Source: Vulcanimicrobiota bacterium (GTDB lineage: Bacteria; Vulcanimicrobiota; Vulcanimicrobiia; Vulcanimicrobiales; Vulcanimicrobiaceae). From it: DNA of 64,000 nucleotides. The first letter of the stretch is position 1. Every line of letters begins with the position of its first letter. The position numbers are program-made. This document shows positions 39,801 to 51,800 of the stretch, one piece after another. The stretch covers positions 608,001-672,000 of the forward strand of contig CAVRQT010000002.1 of assembly GCA_963723515.1 (NCBI GenBank). The letters run 5' to 3'.

Positions 39801-42800
39801 CATCGATGCGCTAAACCTCCGGACGCTCAGCCCAAGCGTGCCGCGCACCGGCGCCGAGATTTCTAGCGAGACGGCCGAACTCAATCGCGAACTCAATGCG
39901 GCTCGAACGCGCGCGAATATGCTCCTGCAACAGAAACAGCGCGACTATGCGGTGCGCGAGCAGCAGGCGATTCGTGCCGCAATCGTCGCCAGCGGGGAAA
40001 ATCCGGGGCGGCCGCCGGCGCAAGCGATGCAGCAGGCTGCAGCGCAGCAAGGTGCCGCTGCGGCGCAGCAAGCGAGTCAAGGTTTTGCGCAATACCAACA
40101 GCAAGTCGTTTCGCAAGATCGCAGCGCCGTGGATGCGCTGTCGCACCAACTCTCTTCGCGGGCCGAGCGCGAATATCGGGCCAAGGCCGATGAACTTACT
40201 GCACGGGAGTCACAAGCATCGCTCGATGCCGCGAACGCCGATTCAGCACAACGCCTCGCGCTGCGCACAAAATTGAACAATCTTGCGCTCGACGACGCGA
40301 CGCGAGCCCAAGTGAAATCTCAACTTGCGGCGCTCGACCGCAAAGAAGCCCAAACCGTTGCCGGGATGCGCGCCCGCGACACCGCGGAACTCGCAGCCTT
40401 TCAAGCCCAACTGCGCAGCCAGACCGCCGCCCAACTGAGCGCGCAAGCAGGCGCGATCCACGCCCAAACCTCGGCGAAGCTCAAGGCGCGCGGCAATGCC
40501 GTCAGCCAGCAGATTTCGACGCAATTGCAGAATGTCGGACCGGCGCCGGGAACGAGCGGTCTCTCGCCGGCGACACGCGCGAAGATCGAGCAGATCGATC
40601 GCGATTACAAGAGCCGCTTTCGCGCCGATGTCGCGAAGACGATCGACGACTTCAATCGAGCGCGCAGCGAACTGGACACGCGCTTTGCAGCGCTTCATGG
40701 CGTCGACGTTGGCGCGCAGGGGACGCTCGGTAAACAACTCGATGCGCTCCACCGCCAACGCGACCAACTGTACAATCAAATCGTCGCGCAGATCCAACGG
40801 CAGATGCAGGGTATTGCCGCTCAGCGCGGTTTGAAGGTCGTCTTCATCAACATCGTCGTTCCGGCGGGTGGAATTGACTTGACCGATGATGCGATCAGAG
40901 CCGTTGAAAGCGTGCATGAGTAGCCCTTCGGCCGTAGGCTTGGCGTTCGCCAAGCATAGGCTCAAGGTGACAGTCTTGTTGACCGCCCTCTTGTTTGTCG
41001 CGTGTTCGCACAAGCAAAGTCCGGTCGGGATCGTCGACACGCAGCGCCTTTCGCAATATTGGCCAAAGTTTCAGAATTACAACAATCAATTGAGCTTCGA
41101 CATGCAGACGATTGACAAGTCGAACGCATCGGCGGACCAGAAGGCGCGTGAGCGGGCGGCATTGCAGCAAAAGTACGGTCAAATTCAAAGCGAGCTAACG
41201 CAGGAAGTGCGCAATGCGGTCACTCAAGTGGCGAAGGTGAAGAATTTTCAGCTCGTTGTGACGCGCCAGTACGTGGGCTATGGCGGGACGGACATCACCT
41301 CCGACGTCGAGCAGATTCTGAAGATCACGGAAACGTCGCCCGCACCGAGCCCCTAAGCGCGCAGATGCGCAAGACGCTGGCCGAGTTCGCATCGATTGCC
41401 GGCGGTCGGGTTATCGGTGACGACTCCGTTTCGATCGAGCGCGTGGCCGCAGTCGACGATGCAGGCAGCGATGCGCTGACCTTCGCGACGGATGAAACAT
41501 ACTTAAAGCGTGCACTCGGATCGAATTGCGCCGCCGTCTTGACGGAAGAACAGCTTGCCGCGCTGCTCGATCGTCCCTCTAAACCGCTACTCGTCGTCTC
41601 CGATGTCCGGCGCGCATTGGCAAAACTCTTGCGCGATTTCGAGCGGCCGATTACGCGCGGCCACTTTCGCCATCCGACCGCCGTTCTGGAATCATCTGCA
41701 CAGATCGGCGAAGAGGTCTACGTCGGCGCGCATGTTTACGTGGGAGAACGCGCTAGAATCGGATCTGGCTGCACGCTGCTGCCTGGCGCGGTTGTCGAAA
41801 ACGACGTGCATCTTGGCGAAGACTGCGTTCTTTATCCGCACGCAACGGTGCTCGACGGTTCGCGCATCGGCAAGCGCGTGGTCATCTATGCCGGCGCAGT
41901 CATCGGCAGTGCTGGTTTCGGCTGGGCGTTTGCTGACGGCCGGTTGGAACGCATCCCGCAAGTGGGCAATGTCGTTCTGGAAGATGATGTCGAGATCGGC
42001 GCAAACACCTGCGTCGATCGCGCGCAAACGGGAAGTACGTCGATCGGACGCGGCACGAAGATCGACAATCTGTGTCAGATCGGCCACAACTGCCGAATCG
42101 GAGAACATACCGCGCTTGCCGGTCAATGCGGGCTCGCAGGATCGACGATTATCGGCGATCACGTGCAAGTCGGCGGACAAGTTGGTTTCATCGGTCATTT
42201 GACGGTTGGTTCGCGCGTAAAGATTGGCGGCGGAAGCGTCGTTTGGGGTGACATTGCAGATGATTCGTTTATCAGCGGTCGTCCCGCGCGGCCGCATAAA
42301 GACGAATTGCGGCGGGAGGTCATGGTCCGCAAACTGCCTAAGCTGTTCGCCCGTGTGGACGCGCTTGAACGCAAATAGTCCGCCGACGGTGACGCACCGC
42401 AACAGCGGTGCGTTTCTTCTTTTGTGAAGACTTTACAGTATCAAGCCACGCTGCGCAGTCCGCTGCGCTTTGAAGGCGTCGGCGTTCACACCGGCGCAAA
42501 GTCGCAGGTCGAAATCATGCCGGCGCCGCCAGGAAGCGGCGTCGAGTTTATCCTTGACGGAAACGTGCGCGTGCCGGCGACGTCCGAACATGTGACGGAA
42601 ACGGCGCGTGCGACGGTGATCGGCCGCAACGGTGCATCCGTTTCGACGATCGAACATCTGATGGCGGCGCTCTTTTCAATGGGCGTGGACAACGCGAGCA
42701 TCCACGTCAGCGGCCCTGAAATTCCCGTCATGGACGGAAGCGCGAAAGCCTTCGCCCAAGAGATCGCTCAATGCGGCGTCGCATCGCAGAACGAAGTGCG

Positions 42801-48800: not shown

Positions 48801-51800
48801 CGTCGCGGCATGCTATGACACAAGCGACTGCGCCGGCCCAAGCCTCTCCGACGCCGTTCCCAAAACTTCACATTCAGAGCCGCGGCAACGCTTCGCAACC
48901 CGTTAGCATCGTTCAACAAGTCGGCAACCGCAAGGTCTACCAATTGATTGCGCGCTCGAGCGACTCGACGATGCAGTCGCAGACCAATTCAACGGGTGTG
49001 TTCCACCAAACACGAGTAACATTTTTTAGTTCCGACGGCTCGAGACTTTCCGGAACGGCGCCGCTGGCGACGATCGACACCGCGGCGGAGACGATCACGC
49101 TCGAAGGCGGCGTTCATGCCAAGAGCTCCGATGGCGTAGCGCTCGATTGTGACCGATTGCAATACGCTCGCAAGAGCGGCCAATTATTTGGCAGCGGCAA
49201 CGTACGGGTCGTCAATCCGTCGGGCGAAGCGCTCTCCGGCGGAAGCTTCCGCAGCGATCTGCGTCTCTCACACGTGCACGTCGAATGAACGCTGAACGTC
49301 CGCGCAGCATCGAGATGCAGCATCTGACGAAGCAATACGGGGAACGCACCGTCGTCAACGATGTTAATGCCGAGATTTCAGTCGGAGAAATCGTAGGGCT
49401 GCTCGGACCGAACGGCGCCGGCAAGACGACGACGTTTTACATGGTCGTTGGGCTCGTGCGTCCGGATAGCGGGTGCGTGCTGTTGCGTGACGGAAGGCAA
49501 GACGTCGATCTCAGCGATGCGCCGATGCATTGGCGCGCCCGCCGCGGCATCGGTTACCTCTCACAAGAGAACTCGATTTTTCGCAAGCTGACCGTCGGCG
49601 ACAACATCCGGCTGATTTGGGAGATGAACAACGTGCCCGCCGAGGAGCAGGAACATCGGCTGCCGGTGCTCTTGGAAGAGTTCGGCTTGCTGCGGTTCAT
49701 CGACGCCCGCGGCGACAGCTTATCGGGCGGAGAGCGCCGCCGCGTCGAAATCGCGCGCGCAATCGCAACGGAGCCGGACTTTCTACTGCTCGATGAACCG
49801 TTCACCGGCATCGATCCGATCGCAGTCGCCGATATTCAGGCGATGATTCGTCAGCTCCGTGAGCGGGGACTCGGGGTTCTGATCACCGACCACCAGGTGC
49901 GCGAAACGCTGGCGATCGTCGACCGAGCATACATCCTCAATGATGGGCGCATTGAAGTCTCGGGCACCGCGCAAGAAGTTTTGGATAGTCCAGTCGCGCG
50001 CCGGTTCTATTTGGGCGAGGCATTCCGGCTGTGAGCCGAGCCGCAGTCATCGCGCAAAGGGCGCCATTGCGCGTGCATCTGCTCATTCTCGATCGATACA
50101 TGCTGACGGAGCTGAGTGGACCGTTTCTCTTCGGTCTTTCCGCCTTTACGCTGATCTTTGCCGCAGCCAACATCCTCAATATCGGCAAGCTCGTCTCGAA
50201 CGATCATGCGCCGCTTTGGGCCGCGATAGAAGTCTTTCTCTGGTCGCTTCCAAGCACGGTCGTGCTCGTCATTCCGATGGCGCTGCTGCTCGGAACGCTC
50301 TTAGCGATGCAGCGGCTCTCCGGCGAAAGCGAGATCACCGCGATGAAGGCGGGCGGCATCGCGCTGCTGCGCATTTCCGCGCCGTTCTTGATCGCAGGCC
50401 TCGTGATGTCGTTTGTGATGCTCTTTCTTCAGGAAGAACTCGTTCCAATCGCACAAGATCAAGAGTCCTATCTCGTCGACCAGGTGATCAACAGTTCGAG
50501 CGCGTTCGGGCGCGACGTCACCGTCCATGCACCGCTGCCCGGGGGCGGCCAGCAGGTGACCGTGGCGACAGGGTACGAGCCGCACTCGCAGGCGCTTTTG
50601 AACGTAACGTTGATCCAATACAATCGTCAGAATCAGCCGACGCAGGTTGTCTTTGCGGATCGTGCGACGTTCGACGCGCAGCGTTGGCTGCTCGAAGGCG
50701 TGAACACGTACCGTTTCAATCCGAACGGCACGACCTATCAAGAGCACGCCGCAACAACGGAGGTTGACATCGGGCAGACGCCCACCGAGATCGTCAAACG
50801 GCTGACGCACGGTGATCCGGAACAGATGAGCCGCGCGCAGATCCTCGATCTGATTCGCTCCCGGCAGTTAAGCATCGGCGACCTGCGCAAATACACCGAG
50901 GCGTACCAAGAGAAGCTCGCGCGACCGTTTGCATGTTTTGTCTTCACCCTGATTGCACTGCCTTTCGGTCTTCGCGCGGCCCGTAGCGGCGGAAGCACGA
51001 GCCTCGGCTTTGGTATGGCCGTCGCAATCGTCTTTGTGTACTACATCGTCGCAACGATCTTCTCATATATCGGGGATGCGCTCTTATTCTTGGCACCGAT
51101 TGCGGCGTGGATGCCGAATTTGATCTTCACGTATCTCGGAATTCAGCGCCTTCGCAAAGTAGCGGCCGCATAGATGGGCGACTTTATCCGCGGAACGCTG
51201 CTCGTTATCTTCATCGTGCTGGTCGCCGGCGGGATTGCCTACATCGGCGACCGAGTCGGGCATCAGGTCGGTCGCCGCCGTCTCACATTGTTCGGCATAC
51301 GTCCGCGGTATACGTCAACGATCATTGCGGTGGGCACCGGCATGCTGATCGCGCTCTTCTTGACGATCGTAACGTTGATCGCTTCGAATACGGTCAAGAC
51401 GGCTTTCTTCCATTTGAATGCGGTCAACGCGCGGATCACGCAGTTGCAGGCGCAAGCCGACGAGCTGCAGCGGCACGTTCGCAACGAACAGGTTGTCGTC
51501 GGCGTCGGCGATCAGATGTATCCGGATATCGCGCTCTTACCGCAAAACGATCCGATCCCCGATCGGTATACGCGCTTGCGAAGCTACTATCAACGCGTGG
51601 CCGCCTTTGCGAACGCAGAATACGTCCCGCGCGGGCTGAAAAAGTTCGTCTCGCCGCCCGATACGGACAAGAAGCTGCAGGATTATTCGGGCGCCTACGA
51701 ACTGACGGCTGCCCTCTCACAATCGCCGGTCGTGATCATCGCGCTCGCCGACGAGAACCTCTTTCGCAACGATCCGATTCACTTCGACTTTCGCTTCTTG

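Follow-up and report, generated by a model that had tools for sequence, protein, structure and literature searches.

A described system that resembles the one considered here is the 'four-enzyme pathway' that Opiyo 2010 (PMC3087551) describes in cyanobacteria and Dictyoglomi; the same source reports cyanobacterial LPS without phosphate, and cyanobacteria without Kdo and without heptose. Two phosphoesterases serve for comparison. In LpxH, the motif-III His is changed to Arg, a change that is described as occurring 'only in LpxH', and this Arg binds the beta-phosphate that remains in lipid X as its phosphate (Okada 2016, PMC5016852). LpxG is described as a membrane-anchored calcineurin-like phosphoesterase with a GNHD motif and a hydrophobic-hydrophobic-GHXH motif (Young 2016, PMC4807358). 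The pathway gaps of the bacterium studied here, an uncultured soil member of the Eremiobacterota, match those of the four-enzyme pathway as described in PMC3087551, and a small metallophosphoesterase, g00951 (referred to here as MPE), probably performs the missing lipid X-forming step.

A lipid A and LPS-export operon

Within the window, the whole 64,000-nucleotide stretch of DNA that was analysed, positions 41365–51173 of the + strand form a single lipid A and LPS-export operon (Table 1). Open reading frames and family profile matches place LpxD, LpxC, FabZ, LpxA, LpxB, LptB and LptF/G in the cluster, which thus has the content, from LpxD to LptF/G, that an earlier survey had assigned to it. 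LpxB is the sole PF02684 match in the genome. The O-antigen-ligase-like protein also matches TIGR00947 with 63.6 bits, far below the cut-off, and the 440-aa coiled-coil protein between the OmpH/Skp-like genes has no family match. Two true starts probably lie later than tabulated: that of FabZ (43170), because the family match begins at residue 41, and that of the LptC-like protein (48545), because its reading frame overlaps the ligase-like gene. The DUF3084 gene is found downstream of lptFG in relatives too (same place in loci L099–L101).

Table 1 Genes of the lipid A and LPS-export operon and its flanks
Feature	Position	Strand	Evidence
BamA (Omp85 with POTRA repeats), upstream end of envelope cluster	36566–38818	+	PF07244 134.9 bits; PF01103 93 bits
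OmpH/Skp-like, first of two	38796–39623	+	PF03938 66.9 bits
440-aa lipoprotein-like coiled-coil protein	39601–40923	+	lipobox-like N-terminus, Q/A-rich
OmpH/Skp-like, second of two	40886–41356	+	PF03938 34.4 bits
LpxD	41365–42378	+	NF002060 357.9 bits (cut-off 207); TIGR01853 331 bits
LpxC	42424–43275	+	PF03331 291.8 bits; TIGR00325 227.1 bits (cut-off 187.25)
FabZ	43170–43754	+	NF000582 178.7 bits (cut-off 113); ORF taken from first start codon
LpxA	43751–44518	+	NF003657 340.1 bits (cut-off 226)
LpxB	44574–45674	+	PF02684 196.3 bits; TIGR00215 158.5 bits (below cut-off 190.25)
g00951, 244-aa metallophosphoesterase (MPE)	45674–46408	+	PF00149 24.2 bits
g00952, 384-aa TIGR03492-like LpxB paralogue	46405–47559	+	TIGR03492 195.9 bits (below cut-off 219.2)
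O-antigen-ligase-like (Wzy_C/IctB-like) membrane protein	47553–48752	+	PF04932 64.6 bits (cut-off 31.7)
LptC-like protein, weak match	48545–49288	+	PF06835 17.2 bits (below 21); TIGR04409 31.2 bits (below 38)
LptB	49285–50034	+	TIGR04406 335.7 bits (cut-off 240)
LptF/G-family permease	50031–51173	+	PF03739 265.4 bits; TIGR04408 219.5 bits (below 240)
DUF3084 protein	51174–52097	+	PF11283 82.1 bits

The order lpxB–MPE–g00952, previously noted in five of five relatives, holds in 79 of 80 close loci. The MPE–g00952 pair is present in all 80 of these and in 19 of a further 20 loci that sample 20 families, and the two genes are neighbours in 99 of 100 loci overall. A 1-nt overlap joins lpxB to the MPE gene in 60 of 82 loci, and a 4-nt overlap joins the MPE gene to g00952 in 59 of 99. 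At the host locus, the last base of the lpxB stop codon TGA (45672–45674) is also the first base of the MPE start codon, and the g00952 start codon ATG overlaps the MPE stop (ATGA, 46405–46408). Judged by sequence, both junctions are translationally coupled.

Missing lipid A and Kdo enzyme families

The absence searches, previously covering five genomes, were extended to 61 genomes from 20 families and 37 genera of the phylum, of which 49 are at least 90% complete; the host's own genome is 88% complete. The WaaA N-domain and KdsA exceed their cut-offs in none of the 61, LpxH has no match at E<=1e-3 and LpxI_C none in any of them, and LpxK exceeds its cut-off in a single genome with a doubtful match (29 bits, in a 455-aa frame). 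Matches of 72–136 bits to the KdsA profile in 59 genomes look like DAHP-synthase paralogues. Family searches of the host's own genome find neither KdsB nor a member of the LpxL family. Control genomes do respond to these searches, in which Synechococcus elongatus displays the LpxH/LpxI gap too.

The survey's finding that LpxK and WaaA are missing thus holds well beyond the original genomes, the lack of KdsB is borne out in the host, and the LpxH and LpxI families, formerly not searched one by one, join the list; the controls behave as had been claimed. Across the 61 genomes, the genomic prediction of a pathway that dispenses with LpxH/LpxI, LpxK, Kdo synthesis and WaaA is supported. The proposed lipid A without 4'-phosphate and without Kdo agrees with these missing families, its structure being deduced from the absences only.

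The metallophosphoesterase g00951

MPE is a cytoplasmic, N-domain-only relative of UshA and the 5'-nucleotidases; both the signal peptide and the nucleotide-binding C-terminal domain of the UshA-type UDP-sugar hydrolases have apparently been lost. It matches the SoxB model (E 3.3e-17), a UshA-like model (E 6.8e-12) and UshA (E 4.6e-6), with no match to TIGR01854 (LpxH). Its structure model (pLDDT 86.9) superposes on UshA/5'-nucleotidase N-domains with Z-scores of 24–27.5 and r.m.s.d. of 2.2–3.0 over 230–241 residues, in agreement with Foldseek; LpxH (PDB 5b49) ranks 42nd, with a Z-score of 10.0.

The metal-ligand motifs are complete (D8-x-H10, G34-D35, G65-N66-R67-E68, H164 and G186-H187-x-H189). 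The GNRE motif holds the His-to-Arg change of LpxH. MPE is no family-level homologue of LpxH, and the Arg is an argument from convergence that rests on a single residue. GNRE is invariant in 17 close MPE sequences and in representatives of 20 of 20 families. Among the best 150 library representatives it occurs in 84 of 86 domains from proteins of at most 300 aa, with GNH[ED] in 78 of 87 domains from longer proteins, and the short Arg-type MPEs form one clade in the tree (106 tips, support 1.0). MPE is present in all 61 phylum genomes. Long forms number 8, against 1737 of near length; fused forms are rare singletons, and the junk linker in one of them points to a frameshift.

Named relatives in the MPE clade belong to the Eremiobacterota and Armatimonadota; none among them is cyanobacterial, though cyanobacteria share the LpxH/LpxI gap. 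In Armatimonadota-type contigs, MPE has KdsD and KdsC on its upstream side and a PMT_2 membrane transferase on its downstream side; the upstream HAD (KdsC-like) gene is present in 33 of 46 loci and the downstream PMT_2 gene in 32 of 48. None of the 52 loci that span at least 6 kb has an lpx gene within 6 kb. The earlier proposal of g00951 as a candidate UDP-diacylglucosamine hydrolase gains support from the LpxH-type Arg, the phylum-wide presence, the coupled junctions and this kdsD–kdsC setting.

The LpxB paralogue g00952

Residues 5–382 of g00952 match TIGR03492 from position 1 to 396 of 396 (E 8.7e-58), with no Pfam match at E<=0.01, and the protein aligns with the phylum's LpxB over 333 columns (hhalign, 98.9%, E 2.5e-17). 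Its model adopts a GT-B fold (pLDDT 89.7). Retained are D105, P196-G197-S198-R199, T292 and E295; the equivalents of E. coli LpxB D98, P198–R201, T277 and E281 (Bohl 2018, PMC5785501, Table 3) are invariant in 19 g00952-type sequences. The catalytic Asp, the PGSR pyrophosphate loop and the Thr/Glu ribose contacts are thus common to both proteins, and g00952 is, by alignment, a true full-length LpxB paralogue with LpxB active-site residues. For this reason, glycosyl transfer at a step after LpxB, as previously suggested, is a reasonable role. A Pro-Pro/Trp stretch (FPPSAW), invariant among the LpxB proteins of the phylum, is absent from g00952; we take it to be the region lining the acyl-chain groove in E. 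coli LpxB. TIGR03492 also exceeds its cut-off in the control genomes of Synechococcus elongatus and Deinococcus radiodurans. The latter is not known to make lipid A, and the family's link to lipid A is therefore not exclusive.

Proposed pathway and alternatives

The reading we favour, held at about even confidence, is a Kdo-free pathway of the four-enzyme type in which MPE is the UDP-diacylglucosamine pyrophosphatase and g00952 a glycosyltransferase acting after LpxB. MPE, a two-metal phosphoesterase presumably derived from the N-terminal catalytic domain of UshA-type UDP-sugar hydrolases, would split UDP-2,3-diacylglucosamine at its pyrophosphate into UMP and the lipid X required by LpxB, with its motif-III Arg replacing His as in LpxH, where Arg holds the beta-phosphate. 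g00952 would most likely act in WaaA's place as first core transferase, moving a soluble UDP-sugar onto the disaccharide's 6'-hydroxyl, and the ligase-like protein and LptB/F/G/C would complete and export the molecule. The product of the lineage would be a tetra-acylated glucosamine disaccharide with no 4'-phosphate and no Kdo added. If true, MPE would be a fourth, convergent UDP-diacylglucosamine pyrophosphatase.

MPE could instead be another phosphoesterase of the LPS pathway, the true hydrolase lying elsewhere: it would either dephosphorylate lipid X or the disaccharide at position 1, giving a phosphate-free lipid A, or clear the UDP released by LpxB and g00952. Its nearest structures, 5'-nucleotidases and UDP-sugar hydrolases, are also monoester cleavers, cyanobacterial LPS is reported without phosphate (see above), and in Armatimonadota-type loci MPE follows the sugar-phosphate phosphatase KdsC, not lpx genes. 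We nevertheless consider such a role unlikely, as the motif-III His, linked to phosphoester hydrolysis in many MPEs, has given way to Arg, the LpxH solution for the second phosphate, LpxB needs lipid X and the 61 genomes hold no other conserved candidate, and an LmtA-like methyltransferase in distant families of the phylum (TIGR04571 62.7 bits, far below the cut-off) suggests that the 1-phosphate is kept. Hydrolysis in the manner of chlamydial LpxG could be assigned to a 303-aa MPE (C3:67450–68358) that has the general LpxG traits of a membrane anchor and motifs (hydrophobic N-terminus, GNHE and GHDH), and that alone among the genome's other MPEs has a membrane helix. No lpx genes are nearby, however, and its sparse distribution (5 of 61 phylum genomes, and 0 of 15 other genomes of the same family) makes this role extremely unlikely.

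It is quite improbable that g00952 itself fills the LpxH gap by releasing UDP from UDP-2,3-diacylglucosamine, leaving a phosphate-free acceptor for LpxB. Its GT-B fold is near that of UDP-GlcNAc 2-epimerases, some of them hydrolysing, which are its top Foldseek and profile matches (NeuC at rank 44); it adjoins MPE almost without exception, Synechococcus elongatus shares the LpxH/LpxI gap and has a TIGR03492 match above the cut-off, and phosphate-free lipid A in TIGR03492 lineages would be explained. LpxB itself has been modelled on an epimerase (Bohl 2018, PMC5785501), so the fold matches do not discriminate, and the full-length LpxB alignment, the retained catalytic base and donor-binding residues, and the occurrence of the family in Deinococcus speak against this role. 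Also improbable is a conventional pathway, in which a non-orthologous or divergent 4'-kinase, Kdo synthesis and Kdo transferase yield a Kdo-bearing, bis-phosphorylated lipid A. Such replacements would be invisible to family searches, the host genome is incomplete, and its four GT9 heptosyltransferase-like genes, a count confirmed here, point to the usual acceptor, Kdo. Yet five independent families are jointly missing from the phylum sample, and GT9 exceeds its cut-off in Synechococcus elongatus as well, a member of a phylum reported without Kdo and heptose (PMC3087551).

The label 'cyanobacterial-type' given to the pathway by the survey fits the absences and TIGR03492 but not MPE. As the LmtA-like gene hints at a 1-phosphate, a phosphate-free lipid A like that of marine cyanobacteria need not hold for the favoured pathway. 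Also in favour of the proposed pathway, Vulcanimicrobium alpinus, the cultured member of the phylum, is described as diderm, with iso-C14:0-3OH (16.5%) and iso-C13:0-3OH (11%) among its fatty acids (PMC9758169).

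The lipid A gene cluster and its conservation

The envelope genes of the window form one long run on the forward strand, with gaps between them that are short or negative. Gene calls and family searches in the window confirmed the lipid A cluster noticed in the survey, and the figures it gave for g00951, g00952 and g00954 (the weakly matching LptC gene) were all reproduced within rounding. Immediately behind lpxB lie the metallophosphoesterase g00951, here called MPE, and the LpxB paralogue g00952. The lpxB stop and the MPE start have one base in common (cTGATGcgc), and the MPE stop overlaps the g00952 start by four bases (ATGA). 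By the names that its close homologues carry, the organism belongs to Eremiobacterota/Vulcanimicrobiota.

Coordinates of the envelope gene run and of the related loci discussed in the text. Positions are those of the window unless a contig of its own genome (G000:C1, G000:C2) or a fetched locus (L) is named.
Feature	Position	Strand	Remarks
BamA	36566–38818	+	
Two OmpH/Skp-like genes		+	after BamA, around the 440-aa ORF
440-aa lipoprotein-like, probably coiled-coil protein	39601–40923	+	
LpxD	41365–42378	+	
Hairpin with T-rich tail	42391–42414	+	lpxD–lpxC gap
LpxC	42424–43275	+	
FabZ		+	between LpxC and LpxA
LpxA	43751–44518	+	
LpxB	44574–45674	+	sole PF02684 match in the genome
MPE (g00951), 244 aa	45674–46408	+	
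g00952, 384 aa	46405–47559	+	TIGR03492 end to end, 195.9 bits
Wzy_C/O-antigen-ligase-like protein		+	after g00952
LptC		+	weak match, after the ligase-like gene
LptB, then LptF/G permease		+	after LptC
DUF3084 protein and SLH-domain porin of the iron-uptake type	51174–54384	+	3′ of lptFG; porin NF033921, 49.8 bits
Four GT9 matches	G000:C1:108722–111509; G000:C2:588466–590666		
Third LpxB-like gene and methyltransferase	L087:1847–3654; L095:4422–6245; L093:6693–8663; L097:6666–8627		also in L083, L088, L089, L091, L092, L094
Apparent operon kdsD, kdsC, short GNRE phosphoesterase, PMT_2, GT2	L111:4437–6750; L137:3681–9385		others among L102–L181
610-aa LpxB–MPE ORF	L012:4885–6717		complete-chromosome MAG

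To follow the cluster through the phylum Eremiobacterota, 61 genomes drawn evenly from it were searched (20 families, 37 genera; 49 of them at least 90% complete), and the MPE profile matched in every one. A scan with a 15-sequence alignment returned 296 loci, from which 80 were kept, all in named assemblies and all from Eremiobacterota; MPE is adjacent to g00952 in 80 of the 80 and to lpxB in 79, and the ligase-like gene comes next in 71. The arrangement extends to distant families: among 20 loci from 20 families, MPE and g00952 are adjacent and co-oriented in 19, and 18 of the loci also include lpxA–lpxB, which is upstream and co-oriented in 17. Overlaps recur as well, of 1 nt at 60 of 82 lpxB/MPE junctions and of 4 nt at 59 of 99 MPE/g00952 junctions.

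Inserted between lpxB and MPE in 10 of the 20 distant-family loci are extra genes, namely a third LpxB-like gene (about 410–440 aa, PF02684 34–59 bits) and an ICMT/PEMT-type membrane methyltransferase, the two being fused into one ORF of about 610–656 aa in four loci. The best NCBIfam match of the methyltransferase is Leptospira LmtA (62.7 bits, cut-off 325), the lipid A 1-phosphate methyltransferase of that genus. The window's own genome holds only lpxB and g00952, and no third LpxB-like gene.

Fused forms deserve little weight as Rosetta-stone evidence. LpxB–MPE fusion proteins are predicted (P0127, P0161, P0235 and others), and in the metagenomic protein P0146 a short, natural-looking linker joins MPE to a TIGR03492 domain (305 bits). 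All eight long forms are singletons, set against 1737 of normal length, and the ORF in L012 joins LpxB to MPE through a junk Arg-rich linker, probably as the result of a frameshift near the lpxB end, real or an assembly error. For these reasons the fusions are consistent with tight coupling and are not evidence for it. Open frames of 575–590 aa at other MPE matches were rejected as fusions, lpxB and MPE lying there in different frames.

A probable lipid A pathway without LpxK and Kdo

Control genomes responded as expected in every absence search. None of the 61 genomes has a WaaA N-domain or KdsA over the cut-off, a member of the LpxI family, or a match to LpxH (TIGR01854) at E ≤ 1e-3 in a six-frame search in which the E. 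coli control passed the cut-off. The KdsA model gave matches of 72–136 bits in 59 of the 61, which appear to be DAHP-synthase paralogues. LpxK passed its cut-off in a single genome; the match, of 29 bits, lies in a 455-aa frame and is probably not a true LpxK. Neither KdsB nor LpxL-type acyltransferases had a match in the window's own genome (88% complete). The survey had found LpxK and WaaA missing from this genome and four relatives; with 61 genomes searched, these absences are borne out and far better founded.

A four-enzyme lipid A pathway has been named for cyanobacteria and Dictyoglomi by Opiyo et al. (2010; PMC3087551), who also describe an lpxD-lpxC-fabZ-lpxA-lpxB cluster and cite reports of lipopolysaccharide (LPS) without Kdo, heptose and phosphate. 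As in that pathway, the five genes are clustered in the window and in relatives, and lpxH, lpxK and waaA (61 genomes) and the late acyltransferases (own genome) are not found. Unlike that case, the phylum is a different one, the operon holds the conserved MPE and the LpxB paralogue, and distant families add the third LpxB-like gene and the LmtA-like methyltransferase. A pathway that dispenses with LpxH/LpxI, LpxK and Kdo is well supported genomically, and we consider it very probable; it is of a known kind, in a new phylum.

An outer membrane is present in the phylum. The envelope of its cultured member Vulcanimicrobium alpinus is described as diderm, with 3-hydroxy iso-C14 and iso-C13 acids making up 27.5% of the fatty acids (PMC9758169), and Ward et al. 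mention that its members have genes for LPS and BamA (PMC6664022). Four GT9 (heptosyltransferase-family) matches occur in the window's own genome, together with no Kdo genes. Kdo is not a required acceptor for this family, since GT9 scores over its cut-off in the Synechococcus elongatus control too. Judging from the genes, heptose (GT9) and, in distant relatives, a 1-phosphate (LmtA-like gene) may be present.

The short metallophosphoesterase

The MPE opens directly on motif I (MRIYHTSDLHD), which indicates that it has no signal peptide, and stops after the catalytic domain at residue 244, with no second Pfam domain and no C-terminal nucleotide-binding domain. It carries the complete metal-ligand motif set of the calcineurin-like fold, with D8/H10, D35, N66–R67, H164 and H187/H189 invariant, and a conserved hydrophobic stretch at residues 119–139. 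Highest structural similarity of its model (pLDDT 86.9) was observed for 2z1a, 3ztv, 1ush and 3ivd (Z 24–27.5; rmsd 2.2–3.0 over 230–241 residues), a ranking with which Foldseek agrees (E 4e-18 to 1e-13 against 5′-nucleotidase/UshA N-domains). LpxH (5b49) reaches only Z 10.0 over 157 residues, at rank 42, and TIGR01854 is absent from the NCBIfam matches at E ≤ 0.01. MPE is therefore the catalytic domain of a UshA-type enzyme that lacks the C-terminal substrate domain, and it falls outside the LpxH family.

The model resembles the catalytic N-domain of UshA and the 5′-nucleotidases (E. coli UshA 1ush; Thermus thermophilus 2z1a; Bacillus subtilis YunD 9a7h). Unlike those proteins, MPE lacks the signal peptide and the C-terminal substrate-binding domain and has GNRE at motif III where they have GNHE or GNHD, and the short forms make up a separate clade. 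UshA splits the pyrophosphate bonds of UDP-sugars, the chemistry required at the lipid X step. With LpxH, MPE shares the character of a cytoplasmic calcineurin-like metallophosphoesterase of about 240 aa with the same metal-ligand motifs, a gene placed among lipid A genes, and an Arg in place of the motif-III His, albeit outside the LpxH sequence family and distant from it in fold.

This arginine, R67, pairs in the alignment with the GNHEF His of 3ivd and is invariant in 17 close homologues and in representatives of all 20 families of the phylum. Searched against 1.84 billion representatives, the MPE profile found 110 proteins at E ≤ 1e-30. Among the best 150 representatives, GNRE occurs in 84 of 86 domains from proteins of up to 300 aa, and GNH[ED] in 78 of 87 domains from longer ones. 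In a tree of 181 domains, limited to matches that span 180 or more profile positions, a single clade (support 1.0) unites all 104 Arg-type sequences with two short exceptions. Okada et al. (2016; PMC5016852) describe the position as occupied in many metallophosphoesterases by a His engaged in phosphoester hydrolysis, and in LpxH by Arg in its stead. Of the arguments for the proposed function, the strongest is this same replacement in another branch of the superfamily, and in a lineage without LpxH, although it is drawn from a single residue.

Precedents for such a recruitment exist: enzymes with little or no relationship, LpxG (Chlamydia CT461) and LpxI (Caulobacter) among them, have repeatedly taken on the lipid X step. 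Both differ from MPE: in LpxG there is a membrane helix at the N terminus, together with GNHD (PMC4807358), and LpxI, a family missing from the sample, is not a metallophosphoesterase. Four further Metallophos proteins are encoded in the window's own genome, none with Arg at motif III; they are a CpdA-like protein with a Tat-like signal, a YfcE/ApaH-like protein, a TIGR00282 member and a 303-aa protein without family assignment. The last has a hydrophobic N terminus, GNHE and GHDH, general traits of LpxG according to Young et al. (PMC4807358); only 5 of the 61 genomes have it, with none of the 15 others of the same family among them.

The MPE clade in Armatimonadota

The only organism names retrieved with a profile of diverse short forms are of Armatimonadota (11 named among the 120 matches listed), and the protein atlas likewise points to this phylum. 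Cyanobacteria are not represented among the named relatives in the clade, which leaves the survey's term 'cyanobacterial-type' unjustified as a label for the hydrolase.

An Armatimonadota-based alignment was used to fetch 80 metagenome loci. No lpx gene lies within reach in the 52 Armatimonadota-type loci of at least 6 kb. Here MPE follows KdsD (TIGR00393, 329 bits) and KdsC (TIGR01670, 147 bits), with a kdsC/MPE overlap of 1 to 4 nt, and is followed by a PMT_2-type membrane glycosyltransferase and a GT2 protein; of the 46 loci with enough room upstream, 33 have a HAD (KdsC-like) gene there, and a PMT_2 gene lies downstream in 32 of 48. This is a second LPS setting, independent of the first, and with kdsD and kdsC as neighbours it shows the clade not to be restricted to Kdo-free pathways.

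The LpxB paralogue g00952

The model of g00952 (pLDDT 89.7) is that of a two-Rossmann GT-B protein. Its TIGR03492 match, although end to end, stays under the cut-off of 219.2 bits, and no Pfam family matches at E ≤ 0.01, hence not PF02684 either. Structural and PDB searches would place an epimerase first: Foldseek ranks UDP-GlcNAc 2-epimerases at the top (TM about 0.6), and the g00952 profile finds epimerases at E 1e-5 and LpxB at E 1.4e-3 among PDB sequences. These matches do not separate the two families, since LpxB was itself modelled on an epimerase by Bohl et al. and its crystal structure is domain-swapped (PMC5785501). Decisive for homology to LpxB, at the level of sequence profiles, is the comparison with LpxB of the same phylum (98.9% probability, E 2.5e-17, 333 columns). 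Invariant in 19 sequences are D105, P196-G197-S198-R199, T292 and E295, equivalent to D98, P198–R201, T277 and E281 of E. coli LpxB, for which Table 3 of Bohl et al. (2018; PMC5785501) gives the predicted catalytic base and the donor-site residues (PGSR pyrophosphate loop, Thr/Glu ribose contacts).

In its full-length profile homology, its GT-B fold and its catalytic Asp, PGSR and Thr–Glu residues, g00952 is thus like LpxB (GT19; 5w8s/5w8x). It differs in the N-terminal loop, SNGxGE as opposed to GExSGD, and in a stretch where the FPPSAW of LpxB is replaced by GTAKS. We take FPPSAW to be the Trp-lined groove proposed by Bohl et al. for the donor acyl chains. For that groove their text names only V125, W126 and W128 (PMC5785501). 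The replacement suggests that g00952 is an inverting glycosyltransferase acting on a soluble UDP-sugar and not on a lipid-linked donor. Its acceptor would be the 6′-hydroxyl of the disaccharide, a group that is recognised by an LpxB-type acceptor site and is the normal position of Kdo. We propose only tentatively that g00952 is the first core transferase. TIGR03492, of which no mention was found in the literature searched, passes its cut-off in the Deinococcus radiodurans and Synechococcus elongatus controls, and owing to the former is not exclusively linked to lipid A.

A possible fourth class of lipid X-forming enzyme

Ever since the 2010 description of the four-enzyme pathway, the source of lipid X in lineages that lack LpxH, LpxI and LpxG has been a standing question. 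The chances that MPE represents a fourth class of pyrophosphatase forming lipid X seem to us about even. A wider reading, to which we give distinctly less credence, joins this role to that of g00952: the short GNRE MPEs would be a fourth independent class of UDP-2,3-diacylglucosamine pyrophosphatase, built from a UshA domain, convergent with LpxH and present at least in Eremiobacterota and Armatimonadota, and together with g00952, acting as a first core transferase independent of Kdo, they would define a complete alternative route from UDP-GlcNAc to exported LPS without LpxK or Kdo. If true, the fourth class would close the lipid X gap for two widespread soil phyla, be a clear example of convergence in an active site, and reveal what takes the place of Kdo in joining the core to lipid A. 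No fourth class appears in the titles and abstracts of papers from 2017 onwards in which LpxH, LpxI and LpxG are all named, and a 2025 review gives only these three in its account of the step (PMC12444477).

Further features of the gene run

The DUF3084 protein and the iron-uptake-type SLH porin belong to families typical of cyanobacteria and other terrabacterial diderms, and the top NCBIfam match of the ligase-like protein is cyanobacterial IctB (63.6 bits, far under the cut-off). LptD (PF04453) has no match in the window's own genome, which says little, as E. coli and Caulobacter are the sole controls in which the model responds. A 10-bp GC-rich hairpin with a T-rich tail occupies part of the 45 nt that separate lpxD from lpxC and may be an attenuator or partial terminator before the committed step; such sites are no more numerous in the region than in shuffled controls, and terminator and promoter scans gave nothing exceeding these controls. 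The ORF between the two OmpH/Skp-like genes matches no Pfam or NCBIfam family. Its lipobox-like N terminus (…LLAIVAC) is followed by a long Q/A-rich body, probably a coiled coil, and by a C terminus that is OmpH-like by eye, and it is kept in relatives, with 36–44% identity in the fetched loci L100 and L101.
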